Below, piece by piece: positions 5,189-36,408 of a stretch of 64,000 nucleotides of DNA. The notes below the pieces were generated by a model. That model did no database searches, had not been told where the DNA came from, and was given only the letters and a program-made list of their open reading frames with translations. Source of the stretch: an uncultured virus (IMG/VR IMGVR_UViG_3300042451_000642). Lineage: Duplodnaviria; Heunggongvirae; Uroviricota; Caudoviricetes. Numbering within the stretch: the first letter of the stretch is position 1; the number at the start of each line of letters is the position of its first letter. The position numbers and the translations under genes were made by a program. The DNA lies in IMG/VR virus record IMGVR_UViG_3300042451_000642. The stretch is one strand, 5' to 3'.

Positions 5189-5217
5189 TTGACTTTATGA
5201 ATATTTTTCACTATATT
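5189..5217 (+). promoter_or_regulatory. sigma70-like promoter TTGACT-N17-TATATT
   Basis: Same geometry at 9442-9470 (TTGATT-N17-TATATT) and 11490-11518 (TTTACA-N17-TATATT), all intergenic. Confidence 0.5.
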
Positions 5218-5235
5218 GTATAAAAACAATTAATT

Positions 5236-6000
5236 ATGGAACAAGGTTACAAATACGACAGGTCTAATTTTATCAATAACCCATTTGATGAAAAACTAAT
5301 GCAAATATCTGAAAGCATGTCATTTGCATTACCGAAATATAAGGCATATAATTTCGTTGGGGGTGCACAAATAACTCCATATGCGAGATTAAAACAATGG
5401 TTATTGGAATTAAGAGGTAGAGAAGATGCTGTTGAACATTTGGAATATACAGTAAGAAAGGCCGAACTTGAAATTCAAATGGACGAAGAAAGTAAAGAAT
5501 TTATTACCGACACCAAAAGAAAAGAAATGGTTGATTTAACCATTGCAGATAAACGTATTGATTTAAGAAAATTTAATAGAAATCTTAAAGATGCGTATAG
5601 AGAAAGACAAGGGTTTATTGATTTAATTAAGGAATATTTGGAATCAGATGATGCCACCTTACCCGATGGTACCAAATTAATTGATGTTTTTGGTAATCCA
5701 AAATTGGAAGAAAAATATGAGCACGAATATTGGACTGTTCGTATGGCTAAACAAGCAATGTTGGATATGATTTCATATGGTAGAATTGGTACAGGTAACT
5801 TAGATTCAATTCTTATGATGGACCCTGAACAACAAAAACAAGTTTTAACTTTGGCTTCAGCATACACGATTTCTATTGATAAAAATATAAATCAATTAAT
5901 GTCACAAGCTACAACAGATAATTTCTCAATTGAAGAGTCGTTAAAGAATCAATTGAAATTAACAGAACCAAATAAAATAGAAACAGAAAAATTATTATAA
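5236..6000 (+). CDS. Hypothetical coiled-coil protein
   Basis: 254 aa, helical; stop overlaps the next start (TAATG). Confidence 0.7.
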   Translation: MEQGYKYDRSNFINNPFDEKLMQISESMSFALPKYKAYNFVGGAQITPYARLKQWLLELRGREDAVEHLEYTVRKAELEIQMDEESKEFITDTKRKEMVDLTIADKRIDLRKFNRNLKDAYRERQGFIDLIKEYLESDDATLPDGTKLIDVFGNPKLEEKYEHEYWTVRMAKQAMLDMISYGRIGTGNLDSILMMDPEQQKQVLTLASAYTISIDKNINQLMSQATTDNFSIEESLKNQLKLTEPNKIETEKLL

Positions 6001-6740
6001 TGACACATATTCTTTTTAAAGTACAAGGGAATGTTCCAGGTTATATACACGTAGTTGGAATGTATTTAAATTACAATTACGGTAGAATAGCTGATGAGTA
6101 TAACGACATGAGAGTTGAATTGAATAAACTTGGTGCAATAGTTATACCAGAAGAGGTTGCTAAAGGATTTGTTTTTGCTGACATATATAAAGATTATATT
6201 AGTGTTAGAACAAATTCAAATATCATGGATGAAATTCCACAGTTGGCGGAATCCAGTGAAACAGAAGCGGAAAAAGTAAAACACTTTCTTACTGACGAAG
6301 ACAAAGCGGCCGGCGTCGCGTTTAATAAAGCCGCGATGAGAAAAGTAGTTGCAGATAGATTTTCTGAAAGATACAAAGAGCTTATGGTTGATGCTTCTAT
6401 ACTGGAGAAAGACACTTGGGAAGAGCAAAAAAGAGAAGCGTTTGGTTGGACTGCTGATGAAGATTATCAAACACCAATCATTGATATTTTATGTGCCGGT
6501 AGAAATATTGAAAAATCAGTATTTGTACAAAAAATCATTAATAATGTAACAGCGTACAATACTAAACTGGCTAATCTATTATTAGAACAACAACTATTAG
6601 AAGAAAGAATTAAAGCGTGTGAAACTATTGCTGATTGTCACAGACTTAAGCATGAGAAGTTTGGCGTTGCAATGAGTAAGCAACAAAGGGAAGATGAGAA
6701 TATTGAAACAACACCTCTCACATTGAGAATGGACTTTTAA
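6000..6740 (+). CDS. Tail-fibre assembly/chaperone-like protein
   Basis: 'TWEEQKREAFGW..D..YQTPIIDILCAGRNIEK..VQKI' resembles phage fibre-assembly domains. Confidence 0.5.
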   Translation: MTHILFKVQGNVPGYIHVVGMYLNYNYGRIADEYNDMRVELNKLGAIVIPEEVAKGFVFADIYKDYISVRTNSNIMDEIPQLAESSETEAEKVKHFLTDEDKAAGVAFNKAAMRKVVADRFSERYKELMVDASILEKDTWEEQKREAFGWTADEDYQTPIIDILCAGRNIEKSVFVQKIINNVTAYNTKLANLLLEQQLLEERIKACETIADCHRLKHEKFGVAMSKQQREDENIETTPLTLRMDF

Positions 6741-6750
6741 ATAATTTTTA

Positions 6751-7752
6751 ATGAATTTAGCGATAAACGGAACGTGTGCTAAGGGATGTTCATTTTGTTT
6801 CACAAAAGAAGATGCAAGATTAAAACACACGTTAGGAGAAATGGATATAGAAATGGTCGATAAAATTATCGACCATTATCGTCTAAATAACTCTAATGAA
6901 GAAATCACCATACTCGGTGGTGAACCCACACAACACTCAAATTTTATTGGGATATTAGACCATATATTTTCTAAGGGATTTAAAGTAAATCTCGTTAGTA
7001 ACTTTTTATTTGGTAAAACAACCAGAGAATATATTGTAGACAATATAAAAAATATAAGATGGGTCTTCCCAAATGCTGCTGAACTCAATGAAAAAAATAG
7101 AATGGTTATTTTTAAAAAAAACTATCTAGAAATTTATAAGGCATATGCAAATACATGGGGATTCGACACTAACCCAAGATTATACTTGGCATTAACAATG
7201 TCCAGTGATTGGGAGAACAGAAACTTCTACGAATATATTAAGTGGTTATACCATGAATTAGATGGTAAAATAAATGCCATTAGATTAGGGTTAGACTTAA
7301 CCGGTACTTATCTCATCAACAATAAAGAGATGGGTGTCGAGATGACCAAAATACTTAAATTTGGACGTTATAATGAGATTAAAATAACTTCAGACTGTCA
7401 AGTTCCACCATGTCTTTGGGAGGGTAAAACAAAAGGTGCAGTAATGGAAAACTCATTAAATTTTGCCACATTCAAAATCCCTGAGTATGAAACCATATGT
7501 GGATTTATGCCGTTAGATATATTTCCCGACGGAAGTTCAATCCATTGTTATCCATTGGAAGATAAGGTAAAAATTAATAATGTTTTGGAAATATCAGGAA
7601 AAAATGGTATATTAGGGTTAAGAGAAGAATTTGATAAACTTTATATTAATAATCATAAAAATTATTCAATCCCACAAGATTGTTTAGATTGTGTTTTCTA
7701 TAAAACAGAATGTAATGGAATATGTGGAGGTTGTATGGAAGGTAACAAATGA
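6751..7752 (+). CDS. Radical SAM protein with SPASM-like C-terminal domain
   Basis: CAKGCSFC (CxxxCxxC), GGEPT, C-terminal CLDC..ECNGICGGC. Confidence 0.9.
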   Translation: MNLAINGTCAKGCSFCFTKEDARLKHTLGEMDIEMVDKIIDHYRLNNSNEEITILGGEPTQHSNFIGILDHIFSKGFKVNLVSNFLFGKTTREYIVDNIKNIRWVFPNAAELNEKNRMVIFKKNYLEIYKAYANTWGFDTNPRLYLALTMSSDWENRNFYEYIKWLYHELDGKINAIRLGLDLTGTYLINNKEMGVEMTKILKFGRYNEIKITSDCQVPPCLWEGKTKGAVMENSLNFATFKIPEYETICGFMPLDIFPDGSSIHCYPLEDKVKINNVLEISGKNGILGLREEFDKLYINNHKNYSIPQDCLDCVFYKTECNGICGGCMEGNK

Positions 7753-8789
7753 CAAAGAAAATATTTTCAATACCGTTTAATCCGATGTTGACAGAGGATA
7801 TGTTTGTAAATAAGTTTTATCCATTCTTAGAAAGAAATAAAGATTGGATTTATGACATTTATTTTACATGTAGAATACCACCATTCACTCAGGATGCGAT
7901 GGGTGCCGTGTTTAGAGAAGAAGACAGAGATGTTATATTTGAAAACGCAATGATAATACAAAGGGCTTTAGGTATTAAAATAAGTGCAACATTCAATAAT
8001 GTTAATGTCTCACCCAAGTATGAAAATTACAAATTGTTTGTTGACAATTTAAAACCATTATATGAAAAAGGTTTAAGGTGTATAACTATTCCGCATGGTC
8101 ATTGGGTTGCAATGGGGTTGAAGAAACATTTTCCCGATATGGAAATTAAAAATACCATATTAAGAAAGGTTGCAACGGGACAAGACTTTTGGTACAATGC
8201 CGATCAAGGATTTGATTACATTAATCTTGATAGAATTTTAATGAGGGATGTTGAAGAATTAAAAAATATCAAGAGAGCACAATTAAAATATCAAGAAGAG
8301 AAAGGTAGATATGTAAAACTATCTTTACTTGTTAACGAAGGTTGTTTAGGTAGGTGTCCTGTAATGGATGAACACTATTCATATAACAATCTTAGACAAC
8401 CTAATGAACTACCATATTTTCATCATGAGATATCTAAGGTGACATGCGAATACAAATGGGAAAAAGAAATAAATGCTTTCTTTTTTAAGGCGGCAACGAT
8501 ACCACCATTCAAAGAAGAGTTCGATGAATTATTGGGGTACATTGATGTATTCAAAATGCATGGTAGAGATAGTTTCAATAGACTAGATGAAACAATTGAA
8601 ATTGTTGAGTCGTATGTTGCAAATAGTGAAGTACTCTCCAAGACCTCTGAAACATATTTGGATGGTATACCATATGATGAATTGAAGGGATGGAGAAATA
8701 AAATAAAGAAATGTAAATTCCAATGTTGGGATTGTAATTATTGCGACATAGTTGCTGACCATAAAAAGAAATCTCATGGACTTAATTAA
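7749..8789 (+). CDS. Peptidase U32-family Fe-S protein (probable hydroxylase-type)
   Basis: LLVNEGCLGRCP...H, FKMHGRD and a C-terminal CKFQCWDCNYC cluster. Confidence 0.7.
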   Translation: MTKKIFSIPFNPMLTEDMFVNKFYPFLERNKDWIYDIYFTCRIPPFTQDAMGAVFREEDRDVIFENAMIIQRALGIKISATFNNVNVSPKYENYKLFVDNLKPLYEKGLRCITIPHGHWVAMGLKKHFPDMEIKNTILRKVATGQDFWYNADQGFDYINLDRILMRDVEELKNIKRAQLKYQEEKGRYVKLSLLVNEGCLGRCPVMDEHYSYNNLRQPNELPYFHHEISKVTCEYKWEKEINAFFFKAATIPPFKEEFDELLGYIDVFKMHGRDSFNRLDETIEIVESYVANSEVLSKTSETYLDGIPYDELKGWRNKIKKCKFQCWDCNYCDIVADHKKKSHGLN

Positions 8790-9441
8790 ACACATTGACG
8801 ACTCCATTGAATGGGGTAAACTTGAGGTATCTAAATTAAATCAAGACATTCTTGATATCCACGGAATAACAAGTAATAAAGTTAAATGTTTTCTCAATAA
8901 CATTTGTAATGTTGATAATGCCACATATCTTGAATTAGGTGTTTTTAGAGGTGCAACTTTTTGTTCCGCAGTCCACGGTAATGACATTTACTCAATAGGT
9001 ATTGATAACTTTATGTCTCCTAACTTAACACCAAAAGGAGTGAGTCAAAAAATTGGCAACTATTATAAACATAATATTGATATACCACCACAAGAAGAAT
9101 TCTTATCGAATGTTAAAAGACATTGTAATGTCAATAAAACATCCATATACAAAACTGATTATCAAACCTTTGATTTTAAAACATTACCAAATGTTGATAT
9201 CATTTTTTATGATGGAGAAACAAAATTCCATGACCAATACGTTGCATTAACAAACATGTTACCAATATTTTCTAAAGAAACTATAGTCATTATGGATGAT
9301 TGGAATTGGAATAGTGGTGCCTTTGAAAAGTTTGTTAGTGATAATAACTTATTTATTAGCCATTATAGGGAATTATATACATCAGGTGAAGACTCCGAAG
9401 ATTTTTGGAATGGTCTTGGAATATTTTTAATTGAAAGGTAG
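8776..9441 (+). CDS. Class I SAM-dependent methyltransferase (Methyltransf_24-like)
   Basis: YLELGVFRGAT, IDNF, IIFYDG, IMDDW motifs; ATG at 8776 overlaps the upstream gene end. Confidence 0.8.
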   Translation: MDLIKHIDDSIEWGKLEVSKLNQDILDIHGITSNKVKCFLNNICNVDNATYLELGVFRGATFCSAVHGNDIYSIGIDNFMSPNLTPKGVSQKIGNYYKHNIDIPPQEEFLSNVKRHCNVNKTSIYKTDYQTFDFKTLPNVDIIFYDGETKFHDQYVALTNMLPIFSKETIVIMDDWNWNSGAFEKFVSDNNLFISHYRELYTSGEDSEDFWNGLGIFLIER

Positions 9442-9484
9442 TTGATTATCTGATATTTTTTGTTTATATTATAATATATTGTAA

Positions 9485-9574
9485 GGGGAGGTGGGTGAGT
9501 GGTTTAAACCGACAGCCTCCGAAGCTGCTATTGGACTTAACATTCAATCGAGAGTCCGAATCTCTTCCTCCCCG
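9485..9574 (+). tRNA. Class II (Ser-type body) tRNA with anticodon CCG
   Basis: Acceptor GGGGAGG/CCTCCCC; D arm GGTGAGTGGTTTAAACC; anticodon arm ACAGC-CTCCGAA-GCTGC; variable arm ATTGGA-CTTAACA-TTCAAT; T arm GAGAG-TCCGAAT-CTCTT; discriminator G; CCA not encoded (CAA follows). Confidence 0.9.
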
Positions 9575-9607
9575 CAATTTTATAAACTTTTCTTAAACAA
9601 AAAACAG

Positions 9608-10492
9608 ATGAGAAAAACAATTACAATGCTATCGATAATGTTAGCACTATTGTTTACTACCACTATGTCATTTGGACAATATAGTAGTAGTGCAATTCAG
9701 AAAGGTTCGGAACAATCCTTAAAAGTTCAAACGGACACAGTCCCTAATCAATTACAAGAAATTGTTGTTACATCAAAGAAAGTCCCATTAATGACCAACG
9801 TAGGTCCTTATGGTCAACCACTTTGGACAACAATGAGAATGTTTGCATCCACTAGAGTTTATGTGATGAATCCACCAGGTACTGCAATGTACGAGAAGTG
9901 GTTTGACATCAGACAAAGAAGAAACGGACCCGCACAAATTAGAATGAGAGATGAATTCACATTCGGTTTAGGTAAGAGACTTCAATTAGACTTTTATTCT
10001 CACACAGTTTATGATGGTGAAAATGGTGACAAGGAATTCAAATGGAGAGGATTCTCTTGGGAGTTCCGTTACGCTCTTGCCGATTGGGGTAAAGTGTGGG
10101 GTAACCCCACATTGTATTGGGAAACTAAAATGTTAGATGGTCGTTGGGGTATCGAACCAAAATTATTATTAGGTGATAGAATTGGTAAGAGTGGTATTTG
10201 GGGATTTAATGCAATTTACGAGGGTAACTTAGCTGGAACCAAAGAAGAACAAGAAAGAGAATACGCATACACCGCTTCGTATGGTAATATCATCAACAAT
10301 GATTTAACATTAGGTGTGTCACATATGTTTAGATATAACGATTATGAGGGAGGTTTTCAAGAATGGTATATTGGACCACTTGTACAATATCGTTTCAATA
10401 ACAAAGCATATTTAAACATTGAACACATGCCAGGTATTAATCAAGATGCAAAACAATCAAGAACCACAATTATATTTGCATGGAGATTTTAA
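9608..10492 (+). CDS. Secreted outer-membrane beta-barrel protein
   Basis: Signal peptide MRKTITMLSIMLALLFTTTMSFG, TonB-box-like LQEIVVT, aromatic amphipathic strands, C-terminal IFAWRF. The track's 9491 start lies inside the tRNA and is rejected. Confidence 0.7.
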   Translation: MRKTITMLSIMLALLFTTTMSFGQYSSSAIQKGSEQSLKVQTDTVPNQLQEIVVTSKKVPLMTNVGPYGQPLWTTMRMFASTRVYVMNPPGTAMYEKWFDIRQRRNGPAQIRMRDEFTFGLGKRLQLDFYSHTVYDGENGDKEFKWRGFSWEFRYALADWGKVWGNPTLYWETKMLDGRWGIEPKLLLGDRIGKSGIWGFNAIYEGNLAGTKEEQEREYAYTASYGNIINNDLTLGVSHMFRYNDYEGGFQEWYIGPLVQYRFNNKAYLNIEHMPGINQDAKQSRTTIIFAWRF

Positions 10493-11487
10493 TCAAAGGA
10501 CAAGAGTTCCTTGTCTATCTAATATTCATAATGTTCGTAACAGGTATCCTCAAAGAAAGAGGATACCTTATGGACATCTTCAGACTACTTGAACAAAAAG
10601 TTAAGTCTAAAAGAATGGTGGTATTTTTGGTATCACTATTTGGTGGTATCTTACCTATTCCTGGACGTGTTGCGTTATCAGCATCTATGTTGAATAGTAT
10701 TGCGCCTATAGATAATAAGAAACGTAAGAAGTTTGGTATCATCGATTATCTTGCAACACATCACTACTATCTATGGTCACCATTAGAGAAGACTGTCATC
10801 ATTCCAATGGCAGTGTTAGGTTTAACCTATATGCAATTCATGTCATATATTTGGCCATTACTTTTAATTTCAGTCTTGTATGTAACCTATTACATTTTAT
10901 CATTAGAAGATGATGAGATTGATATCGAAGTTAAGGATGGACCAATTAATATGCAAAATATAACTATGGTGGTTATACCATTTTTAGTAACCATATTAAT
11001 GTGTGTATTCCTTACCCAATACTATTTTGGTTTCTTTACTGGATTTACAGTATGGTTAGTATATTACTCTAAGAGTTGGAATAAAATATTAGGGTATATT
11101 GATTGGGAATTGATATGGATAGTTGCGTTGGTTATTATTCTTGGTAACTTGGTTGGTTCATATTATAATGTGATTGAAGGATATATTAAACAATATAGTA
11201 AACCTGAACACATTTTAGTTGTTGCAATGATATCATTTCTTTCATCATTTATGTTAGGATCATCTGCAAAATATGCAAGTATTGTTAGTTTATTAACAAG
11301 TGTCTTTGGGATGCATTATTTCGTATTATTCTTTACATTAGAATATTCAGCATATTTGATATCGCCGTCACATAAATGTCTACCAATCGGTCAGAAGTAT
11401 TTCCACACTGGATTTATGACCTACTTGAAGGCTTTAATTGTGTGGATATCTCTTATGATTACTTATGCACTATTGACAATAATTTAA
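10480..11487 (+). CDS. Inner-membrane permease (DUF401/CitMHS/IT-superfamily-like)
   Basis: Many hydrophobic helices; GGILPIPGRVALSA and YLISPSHKCL motifs. Confidence 0.65.
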   Translation: MEILIKGQEFLVYLIFIMFVTGILKERGYLMDIFRLLEQKVKSKRMVVFLVSLFGGILPIPGRVALSASMLNSIAPIDNKKRKKFGIIDYLATHHYYLWSPLEKTVIIPMAVLGLTYMQFMSYIWPLLLISVLYVTYYILSLEDDEIDIEVKDGPINMQNITMVVIPFLVTILMCVFLTQYYFGFFTGFTVWLVYYSKSWNKILGYIDWELIWIVALVIILGNLVGSYYNVIEGYIKQYSKPEHILVVAMISFLSSFMLGSSAKYASIVSLLTSVFGMHYFVLFFTLEYSAYLISPSHKCLPIGQKYFHTGFMTYLKALIVWISLMITYALLTII

Positions 11488-11538
11488 TCTTTACATTTTT
11501 AAAATTAAGATATATATTATAAAAGATAATTAAAAAAT

Positions 11539-12009
11539 ATGGAAAAAATTACGTTAAAATTGGGAGACGTTCTACAATTAGAAAGTGAAATAAACGGATA
11601 TATTGAACCACAAACCGGAGAACAAGTGTTTGAGGGATTCAGTAAACAAAACCTATCAATCATTTTGAAATATGAATTGAGTGACTTCTCAACAGAACTT
11701 AAAGGTGAGAGAACTAAGGTTGAAGCATTAAGAGATGAATTAATCAAAAAATATGGTGAAGAAGATGGTAAGGGTGGTGTCTTAGTTAAAATGTATAATG
11801 AATTGAAAGATGAGGAGGGTAACGTAACTGGTAAAGTTATTAACCCACAATACATCGAATTTGATAATGAATATGGTGTACTTTTAAATCAAGAAATTGA
11901 AATCGAATACCCTGAAATTACCAAAGAAGATTTAAAGGATGCGGGTAAAACGAAAGACAAATATCAGGTCTTATTTAAATTAATCAAAAAAGAAAAAGGG
12001 ACTTTATAG
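11539..12009 (+). CDS. Hypothetical acidic phage protein
   Basis: 156-aa ORF with its own promoter-like site at 11490-11518. Confidence 0.7.
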   Translation: MEKITLKLGDVLQLESEINGYIEPQTGEQVFEGFSKQNLSIILKYELSDFSTELKGERTKVEALRDELIKKYGEEDGKGGVLVKMYNELKDEEGNVTGKVINPQYIEFDNEYGVLLNQEIEIEYPEITKEDLKDAGKTKDKYQVLFKLIKKEKGTL

Positions 12010-12020
12010 TCCCTTTTTTT
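11993..12020. terminator. Bidirectional intrinsic terminator
   Basis: AAAAAGGGACT-TTAT-AGTCCCTTTTT between convergent genes. Confidence 0.8.
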
Positions 12021-12852
12021 TATACTCATCTATGTAATCATATAGATTTACGATTGGTATCCAATTTAAAATTAATCTAGATAATGTACTTTCACATAAA
12101 GTTTCTTGAGCTTCTCCTGGTTTATCTTCCATATAAACTCTATCTTTTTTAAACATATCGGCAACCTCATTTAGAGAAAAATTTTGACCCCTACCCAATT
12201 CAAATGTGTGTCCCCACGATTCCTTATCACATATCTTAATTAATGCGTTAACAATATCATCAATATGGGTGAAATCTCTTCTTTTAGAACCATCACCATA
12301 TATTGTTAAAGGTTCATTATCATCATATTGTTTTTCCCACCTACCGATAACCGTACTATAACCACCATCCCTTAAATGATGTGGACCATATACGTTATAA
12401 AAACGAGTTATGGATGACTTTAAACCAAAATGTTCCTGATAAAGTTTAACAATCTCCTCACCAATATCTTTACTAAATGTGTACGGATTTTTAAACTTAC
12501 CACTATGATGTGAACTACTTCCAGCATAAATTAATGGTATATCATTCTTAACACAATATTGTACCATGTTCAATGTACCATTTGTATTTGTTTCAAAATA
12601 TTCAATTGGATGTTTAAATGATGGTTGTATTCTTGCAATTGCGGCTAAATGAAACACAATATCATATTTCACGTTGTCTAGTATGTTTAGATTTCTAACA
12701 TCACCACATATGTAATTTGCACCATCTTGGTGATTAGAACTAAAACCACTTAAGTAGTTATCTAACGATGTCACATCGTGACCATCTTTTAATAGTCTTT
12801 TAATTAAATTGGTACCTACGAATCCAGCACCACCAGTTACCAGTATATTCAT
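12004..12852 (-). CDS. NAD-dependent epimerase/dehydratase
   Basis: TGGAGFVG, HLAA, YTFSK (YxxxK), RFYNVYGP. Confidence 0.9.
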   Translation of the reverse strand: MNILVTGGAGFVGTNLIKRLLKDGHDVTSLDNYLSGFSSNHQDGANYICGDVRNLNILDNVKYDIVFHLAAIARIQPSFKHPIEYFETNTNGTLNMVQYCVKNDIPLIYAGSSSHHSGKFKNPYTFSKDIGEEIVKLYQEHFGLKSSITRFYNVYGPHHLRDGGYSTVIGRWEKQYDDNEPLTIYGDGSKRRDFTHIDDIVNALIKICDKESWGHTFELGRGQNFSLNEVADMFKKDRVYMEDKPGEAQETLCESTLSRLILNWIPIVNLYDYIDEYKKKGL

Positions 12853-13961
12853 TATATTGTTTTTTTAATAACTATCATCATACTCCCAATTTGGTACTCA
12901 CCTGGTTCATAGTAAGGTATTGATAACCTTATTTTATGTAAAGTTCTAATATCATCATCTGTGAATTGTTCAACTTCAGTAATCATCACGTCAACCGTAT
13001 CTGTAAGGGTAAATTTCGATCTTAAATCGTATCGTGTATTCTTTTGTTCATTTTCAATATAAGTCTCAGGAATCTCTCCTAAATCGATTTTATCGAAGAA
13101 TGGTTCTACCTCCATTAATCTATTTCTATTACGGGTAGTTAAACCCATATTAAAAGTCTTATATGTAAAGTTATCTTCTTCCCAATATCTAAGTTCATTA
13201 AATGCTGAGATTGGTATACCCCACTTTCTAACAAAGTTTCTATTGGATGAAACCTCATATAACATTCTATCTTTTTTATAGTCATCACTAAATCTTGATG
13301 TCTGCGAAACAAAATGATAGGTGATTGCAGAATCACATGTTTTTAAATTATAACCTTTTAGTTTCGCACGGATTAAGAAATCATCATCCTCACAAAATGC
13401 GGGTACGAAACTGAAACCATCAAACCCACCAATATCGTCGAACATCTTTTTAAATCCTGACATAAAGAACACGGCACCATTGTATAAGTTCTTACTATCT
13501 TTCCATTGGTCCACATAAGCATTAAAATTATATTGGTCAAAGTTATCAAACCCCGAACCCAAATCTAATAATACTTTACCTGCTCTTTGGTGACCTCTAA
13601 AAATTGGAGGTTCAATTGTTGTATAGGATAATAATGTATTTGGATTCTCATCTAATAATCTATCTAAGTTCTCTAAAAACTGTTCACCAATTACCATATC
13701 GTTGTGAATCAACACGAGTTTTTCAGTATCAACAAGTTTGATTGCTGCATTATATGTTTCAGAAAATGTTAATCTATCATCATCATGAATAAAAGAAAGA
13801 TTCTTATCTTCCAATGACCCCAACCATTCTTTGGTTCCATCATATGAACCACCGCTACTAATCACCAAAGCTGCTGTTGGGTATATATCACGTAAACGAT
13901 TATAACATTCTATTGTTAAATCTAATTTATTATAAACCGCTAATACAAATGTTATATTCAT
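12852..13961 (-). CDS. Glycosyltransferase family 2
   Basis: GT-A N-terminus, HNDM, GGFD..F..EDDD. Confidence 0.8.
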   Translation of the reverse strand: MNITFVLAVYNKLDLTIECYNRLRDIYPTAALVISSGGSYDGTKEWLGSLEDKNLSFIHDDDRLTFSETYNAAIKLVDTEKLVLIHNDMVIGEQFLENLDRLLDENPNTLLSYTTIEPPIFRGHQRAGKVLLDLGSGFDNFDQYNFNAYVDQWKDSKNLYNGAVFFMSGFKKMFDDIGGFDGFSFVPAFCEDDDFLIRAKLKGYNLKTCDSAITYHFVSQTSRFSDDYKKDRMLYEVSSNRNFVRKWGIPISAFNELRYWEEDNFTYKTFNMGLTTRNRNRLMEVEPFFDKIDLGEIPETYIENEQKNTRYDLRSKFTLTDTVDVMITEVEQFTDDDIRTLHKIRLSIPYYEPGEYQIGSMMIVIKKTI

Positions 13962-14929
13962 TATTTTTCAATTTGTTCTTTAATCCAAGAAAATGTTTTC
14001 GTCAAACCGTCATATAATGAATTTGACGGTGACCAATTTAATTTATCTTTAATTAATTTATTATCACTATTTCTACCTCTCACACCAGTTGGTCCTGTTA
14101 TATTTTTAATATAAACCATTTTACCACTAATGTCAATAATCCATTGAGCCAATTCATTTATTGAAATCATTTCATCACTACCGATGTTAACCGGTCCAAT
14201 AAATTCCGAATCCATTAAACGACGCACTCCCTCTAAACATTCGTCAATATATAAAAACGAACGAGTTTGTTTTCCATCACCCCATATTTCTATTTCACCA
14301 CCATCAATCGATTCCACAACTTTTCTACATAACGCTGCTGGTGCTTTTTCTTTACCACCATCATAAGTTCCATATGGACCAAATATATTATGAAATCTAG
14401 CAATTCTAATATCTAAACCATAATTTTTATGATATGACATATAAAGACGTTCACTAAATAACTTCTCCCAACCATATTCTGAGTCGGGATTTGCTGGATA
14501 AGCTGAAGATTCTTCACAATTAGGATTATTTGGGTCTAATTGATTATGTTCAGGATAAACACATGCTGATGATGAGAAGAATATTTTTTTAACTCCAGTC
14601 TTTAATGCGGAATCTAAAACATTTAAATTTATCATTGCGGAATTATGCATAATTTTTGCATCATTATCGCCAGTAAAAATGTAACCAGCACCACCCATAT
14701 CCGCAGCCAATTGATAAACCTCATCAAATGAACCTTCTGGTAATGACATAACATCAAATACAAAATTAGGGTCCGTTAAGTCACCTTGAAACCACTCTGA
14801 ATTAAATTTAGTAAAAAAGGCATGTCTTTTAATATCCACATTACGAACAAAGTGACCCTCATCGGTTAATTTCTTTGATAGGTTGCCACCGATAAAACCA
14901 CACCCACCAAGGATTAAAATTTTTTTCAT
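13961..14929 (-). CDS. NAD-dependent epimerase (GDP-mannose 3,5-epimerase-like)
   Basis: GGCGFIG, LAADMGG, YGWEKLFSE, KAPAALCRK. Confidence 0.85.
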   Translation of the reverse strand: MKKILILGGCGFIGGNLSKKLTDEGHFVRNVDIKRHAFFTKFNSEWFQGDLTDPNFVFDVMSLPEGSFDEVYQLAADMGGAGYIFTGDNDAKIMHNSAMINLNVLDSALKTGVKKIFFSSSACVYPEHNQLDPNNPNCEESSAYPANPDSEYGWEKLFSERLYMSYHKNYGLDIRIARFHNIFGPYGTYDGGKEKAPAALCRKVVESIDGGEIEIWGDGKQTRSFLYIDECLEGVRRLMDSEFIGPVNIGSDEMISINELAQWIIDISGKMVYIKNITGPTGVRGRNSDNKLIKDKLNWSPSNSLYDGLTKTFSWIKEQIEK

Positions 14930-16017
14930 TTATTTATTTCTGTTTTAATAAAATTTAATGCAGATTCAATTACCTGATGCATATCATAGTACTTGTATTC
15001 GGCCAATCTACCGCCAAAATGTATATTCTTTAACTTATTCGATTCTATTTTATATTTTTGATAAATCTCATTATTATCCATATCGTTAACTGGATAATAT
15101 GGTTCAGTTTCATTCACCTTATATTGAGTAGGATATTCATAAGTTACCCAAGTGTGATTAGTAATATTTTCTTTTTCAAAATGTTTATGTTCAATAACAC
15201 GAGTGTGTTGTGTTTTTGAATCTGTGTAGTTTATGACAGAACAACCTTGGTAATTATCCATATCCTTTTTAAAGTGTTCGAAACGGGTTGTTTTATATTC
15301 CAACTCACCAAATTTGTAATTAAAAAACTTATCTATTGGTCCCGTGTAAATTACACGATTATGTTCAGGTAATTTATCTGTAAAATAATTAGTGTTAAGT
15401 TTAACCTCAATACCATCTAATAACTTTTCAAAAATTTGGGTGTATCCACCGATAGGTATACCTTGATACTTGTCATTGAAATAATTATTATCATATGTGA
15501 ACCTAACTGGTAATCTTTTAATAATTTCTTTTGGTAGTTCGTTGCAAGGTTTTCTCCATTGTTTTTCGGTATAACCTTTGATTAATTTTTCATAGACATC
15601 TTTACCAACTAACTTAATTGCTTGATTTTCCAAATTATTTGGATTATCAATTTCTTTTGATTGAGAATCAATAACATCTTTAGCCTCTTTAGGTGTTGTT
15701 ACATTCCATAGTTTATTAAATGTCCACATGTTAAACGGTAACGAATATAATTCACCTTCATAATTGGCAACAGGATTATATCTGAAATTGTTAAATTCAA
15801 CATATTGGTTAATCCATTTCCACACATCTTCATTTGATGTATGAAATATGTGTGGACCGTAGGTGTGAATGTTTATACCGTCTCTATTTTCTGTGTGACA
15901 ATTACCACCAATATGATTACGAGATTCAATAACTAAAACTTTTTTACCCGACTTAGTTAATTCATGCGCACATATGGACCCATATAATCCAGCACCTACA
16001 ATCAGATAATCGTACAT
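14926..16017 (-). CDS. glf: UDP-galactopyranose mutase
   Basis: IVGAGLYG, HIGGNC, YGPHIFHT, YFNDKYQGIP, GRLAEYKYYDM. Confidence 0.95.
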   Translation of the reverse strand: MYDYLIVGAGLYGSICAHELTKSGKKVLVIESRNHIGGNCHTENRDGINIHTYGPHIFHTSNEDVWKWINQYVEFNNFRYNPVANYEGELYSLPFNMWTFNKLWNVTTPKEAKDVIDSQSKEIDNPNNLENQAIKLVGKDVYEKLIKGYTEKQWRKPCNELPKEIIKRLPVRFTYDNNYFNDKYQGIPIGGYTQIFEKLLDGIEVKLNTNYFTDKLPEHNRVIYTGPIDKFFNYKFGELEYKTTRFEHFKKDMDNYQGCSVINYTDSKTQHTRVIEHKHFEKENITNHTWVTYEYPTQYKVNETEPYYPVNDMDNNEIYQKYKIESNKLKNIHFGGRLAEYKYYDMHQVIESALNFIKTEINK

Positions 16018-16772
16018 TACCACTTATGTTTAAAGAGTACCAACTTATTTTCAAAATAAACATTACCATTACCATCTTGTTTTGTTCCAATAGGACTTGG
16101 GTAATGTGTGTGGTTATGAATATCGTATGGCATTTCTATTACGTTATATTCTGATTTGGTATTAATTATAAATGAAATTAACCATTGTTGTTTTGCATAG
16201 TGTTTAAACATTTTATCAACTAAAGGATATAATGGGATGTAATCGTTTGCCAATTTCTGCCAAGTTTTTTTATTCATAGCAATTAAACCGGTGTTATAAA
16301 CCTTAACCTTTCTCCAATTAACATCAAAAAATTCGGGATACATTGTTCCATTATAACCTAATCTTGGAGCTTCATCATATAACGTATCTGTTGGTGATGC
16401 GTTATAACCTATATAAACATCACCATCTTTAAAGTTGGAATACATTTCCCTTTCTTCGTCAGTAATATTTCTTTGTAGATACATGTCCCCATCAGTATAA
16501 AAAATAACGTCATCATCATTAAATTTATCAAAATATTGTGCGAAAATAAACTCGCCATGCTGTGTACAATTTATTGGACTTAATGCTTTAATTTTTGATG
16601 GGTCCTGCTTGGCAATTGATATTTTTGAAGTGTTTATACTGAAATCTTCATTACTTAATAGAACTAAGACATTTTCATCAAAGTTTGAATTCATTTCTAA
16701 TGACCCTAAATAAGGTTCTATTTTTTTTAAATAGTTAAAATCGGAACCTGTTGCTAAAATTAATTTATTCAT
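16017..16772 (-). CDS. Putative glycosyltransferase (DxD-type)
   Basis: FYTDGD, YNTGL motifs; located inside the sugar cluster. Confidence 0.55.
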   Translation of the reverse strand: MNKLILATGSDFNYLKKIEPYLGSLEMNSNFDENVLVLLSNEDFSINTSKISIAKQDPSKIKALSPINCTQHGEFIFAQYFDKFNDDDVIFYTDGDMYLQRNITDEEREMYSNFKDGDVYIGYNASPTDTLYDEAPRLGYNGTMYPEFFDVNWRKVKVYNTGLIAMNKKTWQKLANDYIPLYPLVDKMFKHYAKQQWLISFIINTKSEYNVIEMPYDIHNHTHYPSPIGTKQDGNGNVYFENKLVLFKHKW

Positions 16773-16827
16773 TTTCTTTTGTCAAGTCTAATTTATTATA
16801 TACTGCTAATACAAATGTTATATTCAT
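16765..16827 (-). pseudogene. 20-codon relic of the 5' end of the GT2 gene that starts at 13961
   Basis: Encodes MNITFVLAVYNKLDLTKENE*, versus MNITFVLAVYNKLDLTIECY for the intact gene. Confidence 0.8.
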
Positions 16828-17441
16828 TAATTTTTAATAAAATTTTCTCTATGTCTTCTATAATATAGAAGACCTTTTTTGACCCATTCCATTTTAGCAC
16901 CAGCACGCTTAAACCCATTATAAAGAAATAAATCTTCTTGTGAATGAATCCCACCAGTTGCTTGGTAACCAATTGATTGGGCTAATTTAGTGTTGTACAT
17001 CATCGATCCATGATGTCTTTGAAATCTAGACCAATACAAGTCACCTTGGTATGGTGTCATCTCAGGGCCGTGCCTATTTAATAATCCTCTTTTAGAATCT
17101 CCAGTCACAACAATATCATATGTTACAACATCAGCATTTACTTTATCTAATATCTCTAATGTATCTGCTCTCAACCAGTTATCTGCACCTAAAAACATAC
17201 ATTTATCGGTTGTCACTCTCATCAACATATCCTGAAAATTTGCAACAGTACCCATGTTTTTTTCCCTCAACACATATTCAACTTCAGGATATATTTTTGG
17301 TAGGTGACCACAATCACCAACACCGTCATCTACAAATAAAATCTTATCAGGTTTTCTCGATTGACATAAAACACTTTCAATACAATGTGCGGCTAAATGT
17401 CCATATTGATATGAAGCAATCACAACTGTTATAGTACTCAT
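16827..17441 (-). CDS. Glycosyltransferase family 2
   Basis: VVIASY, VDDG, FLGADN, EDL motifs. Confidence 0.8.
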   Translation of the reverse strand: MSTITVVIASYQYGHLAAHCIESVLCQSRKPDKILFVDDGVGDCGHLPKIYPEVEYVLREKNMGTVANFQDMLMRVTTDKCMFLGADNWLRADTLEILDKVNADVVTYDIVVTGDSKRGLLNRHGPEMTPYQGDLYWSRFQRHHGSMMYNTKLAQSIGYQATGGIHSQEDLFLYNGFKRAGAKMEWVKKGLLYYRRHRENFIKN

Positions 17442-18172
17442 GGTATATGGTTTACATTAATATTACGAATTATTTCACCATTTTTCAAGTAATCAGGATA
17501 TGTTTTTGTTGATTTTGACCTACAGAATCCATTCATATATGTCATTCTATCTTTCTTTGATTGATTTGGCTCACTACCATGAACAGATAAAACTGACCAT
17601 ATCAAAACATCACCTTTATTTGCGGTATATTTCTTACCACTTAAGTCACCTCTTTTAAATTCTCGTAAATTATTTGGAAGCGGAATCCTCATTGTCTTAT
17701 GTGAACCATCAATAAACTCAATTGCACCATTGTCCTCTGTTATTTCATCAACGGCAATTATTGTTTGGAAATAATCATCCTCTACATCGTTATTGAAATT
17801 TATATCCTCTCTAAACATAACGTCTTGATGCCACGCAAATTGATCTTGGTCACCACTTTCTCTAAAATAAATTTGATTATTTATTTGTTTAACATCATCA
17901 CCAATAAAATTTTTAACCAAATTAATCATCCTTTCATCCGTTCTAATTTTATTCAGATATTCGTTAACAAGTGACGGAAAAAAAACTAACAATCTTTTAT
18001 CATTTTTCTTTTCACTTGGTACGTGTGGATAACCACTTTTTTTAATATCCTCATCTCTCACAGAATAAGCATTCTTTTTAATTTCGTCACACTCTTCTGA
18101 CGTAAAAACATTTGACATAACTATAATACCTTTTTCGTTATATTCTTTCTTAAGTTGTTCAAAATCAATCAT
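17438..18172 (-). CDS. PhyH-family 2OG-Fe(II) dioxygenase
   Basis: WHQD, NGAIEFIDGSHK, GDVLIW..VHGS..N..R. Confidence 0.85.
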   Translation of the reverse strand: MIDFEQLKKEYNEKGIIVMSNVFTSEECDEIKKNAYSVRDEDIKKSGYPHVPSEKKNDKRLLVFFPSLVNEYLNKIRTDERMINLVKNFIGDDVKQINNQIYFRESGDQDQFAWHQDVMFREDINFNNDVEDDYFQTIIAVDEITEDNGAIEFIDGSHKTMRIPLPNNLREFKRGDLSGKKYTANKGDVLIWSVLSVHGSEPNQSKKDRMTYMNGFCRSKSTKTYPDYLKNGEIIRNINVNHIP

Positions 18173-21540: not shown

Positions 21541-22161
21541 TTAAATTGATTTGTAAAAATTATTTTGTTTTTCTTGACGTTCTATCGTCTTATGGTGTTC
21601 TATACAGTATTCTTCGTCTAAAGGTAATGATGAGAATTTTTGACCACCATAAACTTTCTCATGTACCTTACCATACCAACTCATTCCTTTCTTATATATT
21701 CTTCCTTGAGCATCCGGAAAATTTATCCATCCATTTTCATTAACTCCCCAACCCCACTTTTGAATATGTTCTTCGGTTATACCCTCCACAGTGTTAATCC
21801 TCGGTACAAAAATTAAATCAACATCTTTATTCATTTCCAATATTTGATGTAAATTTTTAACCATATACTCACTAATCATCTCATCTGCATCTAGTTGATA
21901 GATATAGTCACCTTTACAATAACCATTTAATATATTTTTAAAATCAGAGAAATTATTATTCCAATCGAAACATCTCCATGTTTGGACATTTGGAAATTTA
22001 TTATACGGTAATAAAAAATCTAATACTTCGGGATTACCATTTGTTTCATCATATAGAACTACAATTTCGTCTTGAGCTCTCTTGTGTTTCAGTAAGAAAG
22101 GTACTAATCTCTTTATCTCCTCCAATTCCTTGCAAACTGTTATTGCAAAACTTATCTTCAT
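21541..22161 (-). CDS. Glycosyltransferase family 2
   Basis: ISFAITVC, LDADE, WYGKVHE. Confidence 0.8.
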   Translation of the reverse strand: MKISFAITVCKELEEIKRLVPFLLKHKRAQDEIVVLYDETNGNPEVLDFLLPYNKFPNVQTWRCFDWNNNFSDFKNILNGYCKGDYIYQLDADEMISEYMVKNLHQILEMNKDVDLIFVPRINTVEGITEEHIQKWGWGVNENGWINFPDAQGRIYKKGMSWYGKVHEKVYGGQKFSSLPLDEEYCIEHHKTIERQEKQNNFYKSI

Positions 22162-22248
22162 ATTTCTTTTTATTTTCATTTATTGTTAATTCCTCACATT
22201 TCCAACACCACTCTCTATCATCCGTGTCCCAACTATGTCTTTCACATT

Positions 22249-22497
22249 TCATGCTCTATTTTCCCCCATTCTTAACCAATGGTTTAAATAATCAAAACCA
22301 TGATTACCACCGCCGTTTATACTTCTTGTTATTACATTAATAATTTCTTCATCAATACCTCTGGCAATTTCTTCTGACATCATTCTAGTTAATTCAGCCT
22401 CAGCATCTATACCATAATGCTCATGTTCTTGTGCTGACCACGTTGCGGTTAACGTACTTCTAATTACCCCGTGAAAAAATTTAAAATTCTTAACCAT
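22249..22497 (-). CDS. 82-aa protein: FKFFxG leader plus a segment resembling T4-type major capsid protein
   Basis: MVKNFKFFHG...LTATWS..HYGIDAEAELTRMMSEEIARGIDEEII. Confidence 0.6.
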   Translation of the reverse strand: MVKNFKFFHGVIRSTLTATWSAQEHEHYGIDAEAELTRMMSEEIARGIDEEIINVITRSINGGGNHGFDYLNHWLRMGENRA

Positions 22498-22726
22498 TTT
22501 GTATCTCCCTTGCAAATAATTTAAACTCTTTATCATTGTCGGTGAACAACATACTGGTATCTGAAGTTGGACTTAATCGAATTGAACATTCATTTGGTCC
22601 TGTTGCAAATACAATAGGTTCATTGTTTCCGAACTGAAAACAAAACTCAACATTCTCTGGTGTAAATGTATGTGGTTGAAAAAGAAGTGTTGGTGTTTCA
22701 TCACCTTTGAAAAATTTGAAGTTCAT
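22490..22726 (-). CDS. Small hypothetical protein (FKFFxG leader)
   Basis: Paralogous to 22729..23004 (QF.N.EP..F.T, FTD, FKLFAR). Confidence 0.65.
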   Translation of the reverse strand: MNFKFFKGDETPTLLFQPHTFTPENVEFCFQFGNNEPIVFATGPNECSIRLSPTSDTSMLFTDNDKEFKLFAREIQNG

Positions 22727-22728
22727 TA

Positions 22729-23004
22729 CTATTTTTTTGGTCTAGCAAATAATTTAAATGTTTTACCTGATGTCGGGTCGGTAAACTTAATATAACCCTC
22801 GTTAGTATTTTGTATCCTAATAATAACCTCAGGTGATTCTACGGTTTCATCTGCAGTTGTGAATAATTGAGGTTCGTCATTATCAAATTGAATCATCCAT
22901 TCACAGGGCATATATGTTTCAATTTTTGGTTTATCGTCAACCGTTAATTTATCAATAACCGATTGTAATAATTCCTCCTTTATTTTTTTTCTACCTCTTG
23001 CCAT
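22729..23004 (-). CDS. Small hypothetical protein
   Basis: Paralogue of 22490..22726. Confidence 0.65.
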   Translation of the reverse strand: MARGRKKIKEELLQSVIDKLTVDDKPKIETYMPCEWMIQFDNDEPQLFTTADETVESPEVIIRIQNTNEGYIKFTDPTSGKTFKLFARPKK

Positions 23005-23005
23005 A

Positions 23006-24253
23006 TTATTTAATTTTTGTTAATTTAGGTAAAATTAGTTTTTGTTCTTTTGGTTGTATTGAGAATGGATTGATGATGTCTTTAAACTTCTCTTTCATTT
23101 TTTCCATTGAGAATTTTTCTTTATTCTCATCACCCAACATCATAGACTTTTCTAAAAACTTATCATAGTCTTTGTAAACCAATTTAAAAACTTCAGTCAC
23201 TTCGTTGTAATTTGCGGTAAACCATTTAGAATCTTTTAATATGAAAGTATCGACTGCACTTTCGTGAACCTCAGTTAATTTTCCACCAATCATAATTGCT
23301 TTATCCATCGGTAAGAAATCCTTATGTCCCGACCAGTTTGATGCAATCACAGGTTTACCCGTCATCGTAAATTCTAATAAAGGTCTACCAAACCCTTCAC
23401 CTTTTGTAATCGTAACCATTGATTTAACTTTAGGATGATTATATAAATTATTCATCTCATCATTAGTTAAATCACCAAACAACAAATAGATTGATGGTGG
23501 ATTTTTATAATCACTCACTAACCCTTCTATCTTCTTTCTAAAACTTTCTCTTTCTTTAATTGAGAACGATGCGGATGATGTTTTAAGTATAAGTGCGGGT
23601 CTATCTTCAACATCCTTAAATGCTTCAGCGAAACATCTAATCAACATACCAACATCTTTTCTATCTTGACCTGTGTCACCCTTTAACCAATGACCAACAA
23701 ACAAGTAAGCAAAATCTTCTTTGATGTCAATGTCAATGTTGTTATAAACGTTGTTGTATATTTTGGTATCAACACCTTCGAATAGTACTTCTATCTGTCT
23801 TTCGATTTTGTGTTGTTTGATTAACTTACCCGTGTTTTGTTCATTCTCATTATAAACTGTTTGTAACAAAACATCTTTTGAAAAAGTGGACGTTGTAACA
23901 ATTAAATCCATTCTATTACAACCATCAATCCAATCCTTAGGTGCAATAGTTGTTTCAATACCAGCAGTAATCCCGATATTAAATTTACCAACTCTTTGGA
24001 ATTCATTTGGAACAGTTACTTGAACGTAAATGTCTGGAGTCTTTTCTAATTGATTGATAATATTAGACTCAATCCATTTATGAAATAAATTATCTTCCAA
24101 TGCCGTCATCGGGGTTGAACCCCACATACAACTATCAATCTTGATTTCAAACAAATCCATTTCATAAAGTGCTTGTAACAAATCTCTTGAGTGTGCACCG
24201 TATCCACTTCTTGTTTTAACTGGTCCTCTAAATAATAAAAATGGTTTATTCAT
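23006..24253 (-). CDS. Glycosyltransferase family 4
   Basis: SGYG, RKDVG, KGEGFGRPLLE. Confidence 0.85.
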   Translation of the reverse strand: MNKPFLLFRGPVKTRSGYGAHSRDLLQALYEMDLFEIKIDSCMWGSTPMTALEDNLFHKWIESNIINQLEKTPDIYVQVTVPNEFQRVGKFNIGITAGIETTIAPKDWIDGCNRMDLIVTTSTFSKDVLLQTVYNENEQNTGKLIKQHKIERQIEVLFEGVDTKIYNNVYNNIDIDIKEDFAYLFVGHWLKGDTGQDRKDVGMLIRCFAEAFKDVEDRPALILKTSSASFSIKERESFRKKIEGLVSDYKNPPSIYLLFGDLTNDEMNNLYNHPKVKSMVTITKGEGFGRPLLEFTMTGKPVIASNWSGHKDFLPMDKAIMIGGKLTEVHESAVDTFILKDSKWFTANYNEVTEVFKLVYKDYDKFLEKSMMLGDENKEKFSMEKMKEKFKDIINPFSIQPKEQKLILPKLTKIK

Positions 24254-25614: not shown

Positions 25615-25812
25615 TTAAAATTTGGATCCTGTTGTTGCTAAACCATTATGGTTGTTTATTGAGTTTCTAAAGTTTTCATCTTTAGAATATAAATCTAAAG
25701 AACGATTTACTAATTTTTGTAGGTTCATTGAACCTTCAATTGATTTAATTTTAAACTTCCTGTAAACATCATCTAAAATGTTAACACTTGTTAATTTTGT
25801 TTCTGCTTTCAT
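25615..25812 (-). CDS. Small ribbon-helix-helix-like DNA-binding protein
   Basis: LTSVNI strand followed by two helices. Confidence 0.45.
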   Translation of the reverse strand: MKAETKLTSVNILDDVYRKFKIKSIEGSMNLQKLVNRSLDLYSKDENFRNSINNHNGLATTGSKF

Positions 25813-25851
25813 ATTGTTTTATATATATTCTTATATACTGAAATGATTAAA

Positions 25852-25877
25852 AAATATCGTCAATTAAGACGATATTT
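25852..25877 (-). terminator. Intrinsic terminator
   Basis: AAATATCGTC-AATTAA-GACGATATTT with an A-run on its left. Confidence 0.55.
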
Positions 25878-35674: not shown

Positions 35675-36085
35675 ATGGCATACTCAGATAAGGTCTTAGA
35701 CCACTACTCAAACCCTAAAAACGTGGGGACATTGGACAAATCTAAATCAAATGTTGGTACTGGATTAGTAGGTGCTCCTGAATGTGGTGATGTAATGAGA
35801 TTACAAATAGAGGTGGTTGATGATATCATTGTTGACGCTAAATTTAAAACTTTTGGATGTGGTTCAGCTATTGCATCTTCTTCAGTTGCAACCGAATGGT
35901 TGAAAGGTAAGAGTTTAGATGAGGCGGTGACAATTGATAATATGGATTTGGTAGAGGAGTTAAATCTTCCTCCAGTTAAAATACATTGTTCAGTATTGGC
36001 GGAAGATGCTATCAAATCAGCAATAAACGATTATAGAAAAAAACAAGGATTAGAGGAAATAATCTTTGAGGAAACTCACATTTAA
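35675..36085 (+). CDS. iscU: Fe-S cluster scaffold IscU
   Basis: YSDKVLDHY.NP.NVG, APECGD, KTFGCGSAIA, LPPVKIHC. Confidence 0.95.
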   Translation: MAYSDKVLDHYSNPKNVGTLDKSKSNVGTGLVGAPECGDVMRLQIEVVDDIIVDAKFKTFGCGSAIASSSVATEWLKGKSLDEAVTIDNMDLVEELNLPPVKIHCSVLAEDAIKSAINDYRKKQGLEEIIFEETHI

Positions 36086-36408
36086 TGGTAACAGTATCAG
36101 AAAAAGCAGCAATTAAATTAAATTCACTTATTGAAGAAAGTGGGTTTCAAACTCCCTTTGTTAGAGTGGCTGTTAAAGGTGGTGGGTGCAGTGGATTATC
36201 ATATGACCTTTCATTTGATACCGAGCAACAACCTGCCGATACTCTTGCAGAAAACAATGGAGTAAAAATTTTAATAGACAACAAATCATTACTATATCTT
36301 TTTGGGACTGAATTAGATTTCTCCGATGGACTTAACGGTAAGGGATTTCAATTTATTAACCCGAACGCATCCCGTACATGTGGATGTGGGGAAAGTTTCG
36401 CTCTTTAA
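36085..36408 (+). CDS. iscA: A-type Fe-S carrier IscA/HesB
   Basis: GGGCSGLSY, NPNA..TCGCGESF. Confidence 0.93.
   Translation: MVTVSEKAAIKLNSLIEESGFQTPFVRVAVKGGGCSGLSYDLSFDTEQQPADTLAENNGVKILIDNKSLLYLFGTELDFSDGLNGKGFQFINPNASRTCGCGESFAL

Follow-up and report, generated by a model that had tools for sequence, protein, structure and literature searches.

A tagged, lysine-poor small protein with a gp23 capsid segment in large uncultured lake phages

An 82-residue protein, encoded on the minus strand of the window (the whole stretch of phage DNA analysed, 64,000 nucleotides), combines a short N-terminal tag with a segment of the T4-type major capsid protein (MCP) gp23 and a C-terminal module. This mini-gene is real, conserved, selected and, within the literature searched, undescribed; its function is putative. 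With a probability of about 40%, its product is proposed to mimic the P-domain/spine surface of unassembled MCP and to compete for a host partner.

Homology to gp23

The features of the mini-gene are as follows.

22249-22497 (-): mini-gene, 82 aa (FKFFxG tag, gp23 segment, C-terminal module), with no Lys past residue 6
22468-22497 (-): N-terminal tag, residues 1-10, M-x(1-4)-F-K-F-F-x-G
22324-22458 (-): gp23-derived segment, residues 14-58, equivalent to T4 gp23 263-316 and to residues 358-407 of the MCP of relative G007
22252-22329 (-): C-terminal module, residues 57-82, T-R-x-I-N-G-G ... Y-L-x-x-W ... R-A

The open reading frame from 22497 to 22249 (-) is intact over 82 codons, and its translation carries the gp23-like motif and the leader FKFFHG, in agreement with the original prediction of an 82-aa stand-alone gene with an FKFFxG leader. 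An in-frame ATG at 22536 (+13 codons) was rejected as the start, as the added codons overlap, out of frame, the conserved end of the gene upstream. The start most probably lies at 22497 because of the position of the tag.

The likeness to the gp23 family, first proposed from the motif, is upheld by profile searches. The Pfam family Gp23 (PF07068) matches residues 26-61 with an E value of 5e-6 and 26.6 bits, above the cut-off of 24.4, over profile positions 163-199 of 376 only, and PHROG 138 (major head protein) matches with an E value of 4.5e-5. Among the aligned members of the mini-protein family, 67 of 70 match PF07068 at E<=0.1. The prediction had been staked on a significant profile match to gp23, and the match is significant: a profile of the 70 family members aligned to 28 full MCPs gives a probability of 99.3% in hhalign, with an E value of 8.7e-21 over 50 columns. 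The same family profile aligns to residues 263-316 of T4 gp23 with an E value of 3e-6. A search of 866 six-frame stretches with an MCP profile finds the mini-gene as the sole MCP-like reading frame in the window. It is likewise the sole MCP match in a 176-kb record (G002) with a 99% identical copy. In that copy (L130:2343-2591, minus strand), His replaces the conserved Asp that precedes the spine helix.

By sequence homology, the mini-protein belongs with PF07068. The complete HK97 fold, with P-domain, A-domain, E-loop and N-arm over several hundred residues, is not present in its 82 residues, and the gene does not stand in a head module after a scaffold gene; in 40 of 48 loci, it lies in a glycosyltransferase operon. 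The mini-protein is a gp23 descendant, yet its length, fold and position place it outside the capsid-protein class.

Relatives and likely host

The carriers are a group of large uncultured lake phages. In two relatives, G007 (335,630 nt, 100% complete) and G008 (316,007 nt, 95%; the part of the record that was read), the gene for a full MCP (591 or 575 aa) follows a scaffold-like gene and is separated from the mini-gene by about 176-182 kb. The mini-protein of G007 matches residues 349-405 of its own MCP with an iE of 4.6e-15. Records G001, G002 and G003 hold no full MCP. The alignment with the phage's true MCP, proposed together with the original prediction, was made with the MCPs of relatives, that of the window phage being absent from the records; the proteins encoded next to the mini-gene are 66-80% identical between the window and these relatives. 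A tree of 27 mini-proteins and 10 MCP segments (51 columns), built with those 27 of 44 mini-proteins that lack indels, is mostly unresolved, with two label changes, and leaves a single origin of the mini-proteins neither shown nor excluded.

The host is likely a member of the Bacteroidota. Upstream regions of G007 genes are enriched in the word TAnnTTTG, which we take to be the housekeeping promoter of Bacteroidota. Among named isolates, the closest MCPs (~41%) belong to Flavobacterium phages and to one phage recorded from Microcystis. A bS21 gene lies near the MCP gene of G007, on the opposite strand, a layout like that of the bS21 phages predicted to infect Bacteroidetes in the consulted part of PMC9723584. 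G007 also encodes a tmRNA and four tRNAs (Glu, Ser, Met and Thr) at L111:6275-6679 (-).

Family, operon setting and selection

Homologues of the mini-protein fall into 98 clusters at 90% identity (98 candidates, 45-144 aa) and 65 representatives at 50% identity (41-152 aa), all of them short reading frames. They occur in 73 viral loci, or 48 after removal of duplicates. Scoring of 7999 longer candidates (267-2000 aa) returned 26 full MCPs and one 378-aa fusion, which sits on a 1.5-kb contig; lengths of 145-266 aa are covered solely by the search that gave the 65 representatives. No internal stops are seen in the homologue matches examined in the fetched relatives. The mini-gene is absent from all isolates among 50,697 phage records, and in the ESM Atlas clusters of the family are present, named only as Gp23-domain or hypothetical proteins.

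The neighbouring genes in the window are the following.

23006-24253 (-): GT-B (group 1) glycosyltransferase-like gene, upstream
22729-23004 (-): paralogue of the 78-aa gene with Lys and without the tag (39% over 62 aa, E 9e-9)
22490-22726 (-): overlapping upstream gene, 78 aa, tagged, with no assigned function
21541-22161 (-): GT2 glycosyltransferase gene, downstream

The GT-B gene lies upstream in 40 of 48 loci, a GT2 motif follows within 900 nt downstream in 33 of 48, and the tagged 78-aa gene precedes the mini-gene in 30 of 48. Between GT-B and GT2, starts and stops of the mini-gene overlap those of its neighbours in most loci. The same MCP piece stands in other contexts at 8 of the 48. 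The 78-aa gene and its paralogue (22490-23004, minus strand) belong to no known family, and both end in F-K-L-F-A-R. A Cys/His peptide (C-x-x-H ... C-W-x-C; 22049-22252, minus strand) begins at the stop of the mini-gene; its first ~25 residues are found in 25 of 48 loci, and it heads a 315-aa reading frame in L035 and L041 and enters the GT2 gene in another frame in the window. The glycosyltransferase run is headed by a 65-aa gene, weakly RHH-like (25615-25876, minus strand; Pfam E 0.14), which is preceded by a 9-bp inverted repeat with a minus-strand T run that might serve as terminator or operator. In RNA runs, the word fraction is 0.05-0.11 in the five listed, from which no conclusion is drawn on expression or habitat; the four runs inspected are contigs, with no listed piece spanning the mini-gene, and one listed short match within it continues into unlike sequence.

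Selection was assessed in a codon alignment of 42 distinct tagged genes out of 46 short matches. In the dN/dS analysis of relatives suggested at the outset, the 14 closest pairs, which together show 70.8 synonymous and 52.2 non-synonymous differences, have values of 0-0.49. For 545 pairs with 0.03<pS<0.55, the mini-gene has a median dN/dS of 0.51; the corresponding median is 0.34 in the upstream gene and 0.13 in GT2. These pairs are non-independent, and distant ones are affected by saturation and indels. Identity to G007 is 45% for the mini-protein and 66-80% for neighbouring proteins. The mini-gene is thus under purifying selection, though of a looser kind than its neighbours. Frameshifted or decaying homologues, which would have spoken against the original prediction, are not what is found: the homologues are intact and under selection.

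Anatomy of the mini-protein

In 63 aligned homologues, residues F5, F7, F8 and G10 of the tag are invariant, and position 6 varies. The gp23-derived segment comprises a P-domain strand, a shortened acidic helix and a long helix, which we take to be the spine helix of the HK97 fold. The segment is closer to the MCP of the clade itself (residues ~349-407) than to T4 gp23. In the predicted model of the mini-protein, only helices 32-60 (pLDDT 82-89) and 68-77 are formed, and there is no compact fold (pTM 0.34).

The spine positions scored were those conserved in at least 90% of 27 MCPs. Across the 69 of 70 mini-proteins that were anchored, these positions are mostly kept, as shown by the fractions for L1 (0.91), S6 (0.84), I9 (0.83) and D14 (0.96); E0 is kept at 1.00, but is fixed by the anchoring pattern itself. 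Most positions that vary among MCPs differ in the mini-proteins. This comparison used ungapped anchoring of 69/70 mini-proteins and 27/28 MCPs, most of the latter from other clades. The acidic helix is cut more often than any other part and is whole in only 25 of 70 family members (pattern-based); the window copy is short by ~4-5 residues in this helix, just before the spine helix. Indels are common in the N-terminal half of the family alignment, and the family is acidic, with a median pI of 4.9.

The C-terminal module weakly resembles the end of a phage GH19 endolysin (hhalign 3.1%, E 0.014). The endolysin of G007 is the only one of 589 reading frames with the word of the module and is the best match of the tail profile (iE 0.03), and the PHROG chitinase profile matches 7 of 10 chosen family members with E values of 0.006-0.16. 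The T-R-R-I-N-G-G word recurs in another tagged gene. A complex prediction for the mini-protein and MCP of G007 scored 0.01, with the verdict "no answer", and is given no weight either way; the single-sequence fold of the MCP was unusable (pLDDT 34).

A tag common to many small genes

The original prediction overlooked that the leader is shared among many unrelated small genes with lysine-free bodies. Seven genes in the window start with M-x(1-4)-F-K-[FL]-[FL], among them the following.

52063-52398 (+): a further small gene with the tag, whose 99 body residues include 0 Lys
53468-54955 (+): four consecutive tagged small genes (53468, 53809, 54240, 54461), 1-4 Lys per body

In G007, the tag is found on 25 of 214 genes of <=200 aa and on 0 of 201 larger genes, counted with a slightly wider pattern and with one of the 25 probably a false positive; 0.28% of random internal 9-residue windows match by chance. 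Most of these genes lie in a tandem array at 3-17 kb. Altogether, 102 tagged sequences can be grouped by body into 27-31 clusters that are unrelated to one another. Within the tag, synonymous Phe and Lys codons are used about as variably as genome-wide, and on this variation a DNA-only reading of the tag was ruled out; the tag Gly codon is GGG in 35 of 76 cases vs 7% genome-wide. Since the tag pattern itself selects on amino acids, the independent evidence is the homologue alignment. The tag appears to be read as protein, and copying may also have spread it. A twin-arginine signal, compared by its general consensus, was rejected, as no hydrophobic stretch follows the tag. No Glu or other acidic processing residue is conserved after the tag, the conserved residue being Gly. 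Head-module genes have no tag, and the late-type motif of structural genes is not seen directly upstream of tagged genes in the few gaps inspected.

Arrays of unrelated FKFF-tagged small genes with overlapping stops and starts occur at 52063-54955 (+) of the window and at 3301-17493 of G007 (L107), with ~20 members in G007 and 19 listed in L144. Some genes carry doubled tags. An RMF-like pattern, Y/W-x-x-G-W, occurs in several tagged bodies (one weak match to Pfam RMF, E 0.02). Two other N-terminal word families in G007, M-K-L-x-D-I-L-x-E (9 genes) and x-I-x-L-T-E-x-Q-L (6 genes), are candidate head-packaging signals.

Avoidance of lysine

In G007, Lys makes up 2.2% of the tagged bodies (25 genes) and 9.5% of the remaining 189 small genes (Mann-Whitney p 8e-12), and Arg is up 1.8-fold in the tagged bodies. 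From the helix to the C-terminus, the mini-protein family has 3 Lys in 3354 residues and 10.7% Arg. Wholly Lys-free bodies are found in 33 of 64 family members, and 61 of 64 are Lys-free from the first Trp onward. The tagged 78-aa neighbour has 2 Lys and its untagged paralogue 8. The spine helix of the parent MCP is itself without Lys; the lack is partly inherited, and inheritance does not account for the tail and flanks. With a genomic GC content of 33%, Lys avoidance is a good indication that the protein is produced and important. That a short tag and near-total Lys avoidance go together in an AT-rich phage is a strong sign of selection that has yet to be explained. Scanning G007 and G002 for tRNA genes revealed no tRNA-Lys, and there is therefore no support for a phage-supplied replacement.

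By the criterion of a Lys-free stretch over at least 50% of the length, the mini-protein is a lysine desert (76 of 82 residues), with the proviso that published surveys used proteins of at least 150 aa. Lysine deserts are discussed for Mycobacterium phages, with a Pup-proteasome hypothesis, in the consulted part of PMC13696103. Those deserts share with the mini-protein a Lys-free stretch over more than half of the protein. In contrast, the genome here is AT-rich and lysine-rich, the likely host belongs to the Bacteroidota and the desert is tied to a tag. Pupylation is not expected in Bacteroidota.

Other copies of MCP pieces

In G007, three small genes match the MCP profile at iE<0.01, and all are tagged (3 of 25 vs 0 of 189; p ~0.0014 by hand, with the iE threshold picked after inspection). 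Over all loci, which had been chosen around such genes, 53 of 1005 distinct small genes match at iE<0.05, and 46 of the 53 are tagged. Three MCP blocks have been copied: a stretch homologous to Gol, the strand and spine helix, and the C-terminal YAPY strand. The Gol-homologous stretch corresponds to residues 70-105 of the G007 MCP and ~91-126 of the T4 precursor. Genes in L081, L091 and L095 fuse spine and Gol blocks with the order swapped. No clear match was found between tagged bodies and other proteins of at least 150 aa in the fetched genomes, apart from MCP and their own paralogues, and there are no clear excerpts of other large proteins among the 589 reading frames. The enrichment of MCP pieces is biased, as only conserved ones remain recognisable.

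A 60-aa gene at L064:2181-2360 (+), inserted two genes upstream of a mini-gene homologue, has a tag at both ends and a tail-fibre repeat between them (PHROG 9942, E 1.7e-8). In distant phages, lysine-poor small genes with other leaders (L081:5742-6363, L091:2969-3364, L096:3312-5052) carry MCP pieces that include the C-terminal strand and spine-plus-Gol fusions.

Proposed function and alternatives

We infer the following course of events, from translation in vivo through mimicry and a host partner to the roles of the tag and of Lys avoidance. A piece of the clade's gp23 MCP gene would have been copied behind a portable N-terminal tag, one that dozens of small accessory proteins of these phages carry. 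The encoded protein would be a long acidic amphipathic helix and a short helix, incapable of acting as a capsid subunit while retaining residues kept in MCPs. Such a mimic may compete for a host protein that reads the P-domain/spine surface, be it an immune sensor, a chaperone or a protease, and this competition would spare the real MCP or dampen the response. The tag may deliver the mimic to a common partner or place, and the lack of Lys may keep it clear of lysine-directed modification or of a shortage of lysyl-tRNA.

The homology to the MCP core, the kept spine residues, the repeated copying of MCP blocks and the avoidance of Lys argue tentatively for mimicry. Several observations argue against it. 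The mini-protein lacks the A-domain surfaces read by Avs7 and CapRel, and its predicted model is not compact; the MCP sensors compared here (CapRel, CmdTAC and the Avs families), all studied in enterobacteria, read folded, extended surfaces. A fragment that binds a sensor could trigger rather than block it. The fixed place in the glycosyltransferase operon is unlike the shuffled tagged arrays and unusual for a volatile counter-defence gene. The deletion in the acidic helix of the window copy and the median dN/dS, high against that of GT2, also count against mimicry.

An alternative that we consider somewhat unlikely is a modulator of head assembly, whose helix would swap into or cap unassembled MCP or bind the scaffold, and so time or size the phage's own prohead or poison the assembly of a co-infecting relative. 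The copied stretch includes the acidic small-helix region, and in T4 a negatively charged small helix of the P-domain makes inter-capsomer contacts, according to the consulted part of PMC9958956. That contact helix is probably the one copied here. The stable position of the mini-gene across the clade and the acidic family pI would also suit a modulator. However, the acidic helix is precisely the part most often cut, the MCP gene is far away in both near-complete relatives, and head-module genes are untagged. Neither would a modulator account for one tag and Lys avoidance on several MCP pieces and on unrelated bodies.

It is less probable that the tagged genes form a nursery, in which selection keeps the tag and Lys avoidance and recombination at gene starts supplies any folding body, the MCP piece being a handy stable helix with no MCP-specific role. 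The mosaic bodies, such as the tail-fibre piece in L064:2181, the T-R-R-I-N-G-G word elsewhere and the doubled tags, fit this idea, the excess of GGG hints at copied DNA, and the mini-gene evolves faster than its neighbours. Set against this are the retention of MCP-invariant acidic and polar residues beyond a helical pattern, the repeated copying of MCP in different blocks and the genome-like variation of the tag Phe and Lys codons. We give a similarly low probability to an extended form of mimicry, a tagged library of lysine-free mimics, in which one address label would deliver excerpts of conserved virion-protein motifs (three MCP blocks, a tail-fibre repeat and perhaps an endolysin helix) as decoys. 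The target of such a library, an equally doubtful proposal, would be a host surveillance or lysine-conjugation machine that reads patterns the phage cannot mutate away.

Two further roles are considered quite improbable. As an adaptor of the glycosyltransferase operon, the mini-protein would bring transferases to the capsid protein, or serve as acceptor, for virion glycosylation. Its place between GT-B and GT2, with overlapping starts and stops, suits this role; the other contexts of the same MCP piece at 8 of 48 loci do not, other MCP-piece genes sit in tagged arrays, and the data offer no support for glycosylation of these virions. As packaged cargo, it would resemble the T4 internal proteins, with the tag as a capsid-targeting sequence and injection at the next infection. 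The ~10 common N-terminal residues on unrelated small bodies and the variable locus are consistent with packaging, which is compatible and combinable with a decoy. The missing acidic cleavage residue of the tag and the late-type motif, not seen directly upstream of tagged genes in the few gaps inspected, speak against it. A decaying fragment or chance resemblance, to which the frequent N-terminal indels and a dN/dS above that of neighbours might point, is a highly improbable reading, largely refuted by the clusters of short reading frames (98 at 90%, 65 representatives at 50%), by the lack of stops in the examined matches and by Lys avoidance despite 33% GC.

Comparison with known systems

Relative to T4 gp23 (PF07068; PDB 6UZC, 5VF3, 7VS5), the mini-protein is a true homologue of residues 263-316. 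It differs in having ~45-55 of more than 520 residues, without A-domain, E-loop or N-arm, in its gene lying outside the head module, and in its tag and own C-terminal module. In T-even phages, a short N-terminal capsid-targeting sequence is carried by unrelated small internal proteins (IPI, IPII and IPIII), as described in the consulted parts of PMC9026906 and PMC9958956. The FKFF tag is likewise a ~10-residue N-terminal signal common to unrelated small proteins, but has another residue pattern and no conserved site for processing by the prohead protease. Those parts do not mention MCP-derived bodies, which are a feature of the tagged genes here.

Bacterial immunity is triggered by MCPs repeatedly, and several such responses are relevant to mimicry. 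Gol lies in the first quarter of gp23, and this short stretch alone can act on a host protein (PMC3014915, in the part consulted). In the Gol/Lit/EF-Tu system, Gol is a trigger within the MCP and not a separate gene. Gol-homologous pieces do occur in other tagged genes of the relatives, whereas the mini-gene carries another stretch of gp23; since it lacks the Gol region, the decoy of Lit-type defences named in the original prediction is not supported for it. For CapRel-SJ46, the predicted contacts on the SECphi27 MCP are with the P-domain sheet, the spine helix and A-domain loops (PMC9712102, in the part consulted). The same structural element has been copied in the mini-protein, which by homology has one strand and the spine helix of this trigger surface and lacks the folded sheet and the A-domain loops; the MCP family is a different one, the CapRel host is enterobacterial, and no such decoy is mentioned in that part of the paper. 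T4 gp23 triggers CmdTAC, and no gp23 escape mutants were found, according to the consulted part of PMC11618068; MCPs may therefore be hard to mutate out of detection. Avs7, Avs8 and Avs10 also sense MCPs, and Avs7 reads an extended shape centred on the A-domain (10.64898/2026.01.04.697583, in the part consulted).

No description of tagged MCP excerpts was found in the open literature searched, including the consulted part of a 2026 overview of phage countermeasures (PMC13728456). The supplements of PMC9723584 may list these genes as hypothetical. If mimicry is true, making separate copies of the best-conserved MCP surfaces would let a phage sidestep immune detection directly, and each excerpt would be a ready probe for its host receptor. 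If there is a library of mimics, the excerpts would map the epitopes read by Bacteroidota immunity, and Lys avoidance would point to an undescribed lysine-directed antiviral system. If head assembly is what it affects instead, the mini-protein would represent a minimal modulator of capsid assembly.

Elsewhere in the window, three or four adjacent paralogues of 368-379 aa with a shared N-terminus and internal repeats (393-5185, plus strand) are followed by genes that we take to be radical-SAM-like and sugar-modifying. Iron-sulfur assembly genes, presumably IscU-like and IscA-like, lie at 35675-36408 (+) and are present in G007 too.
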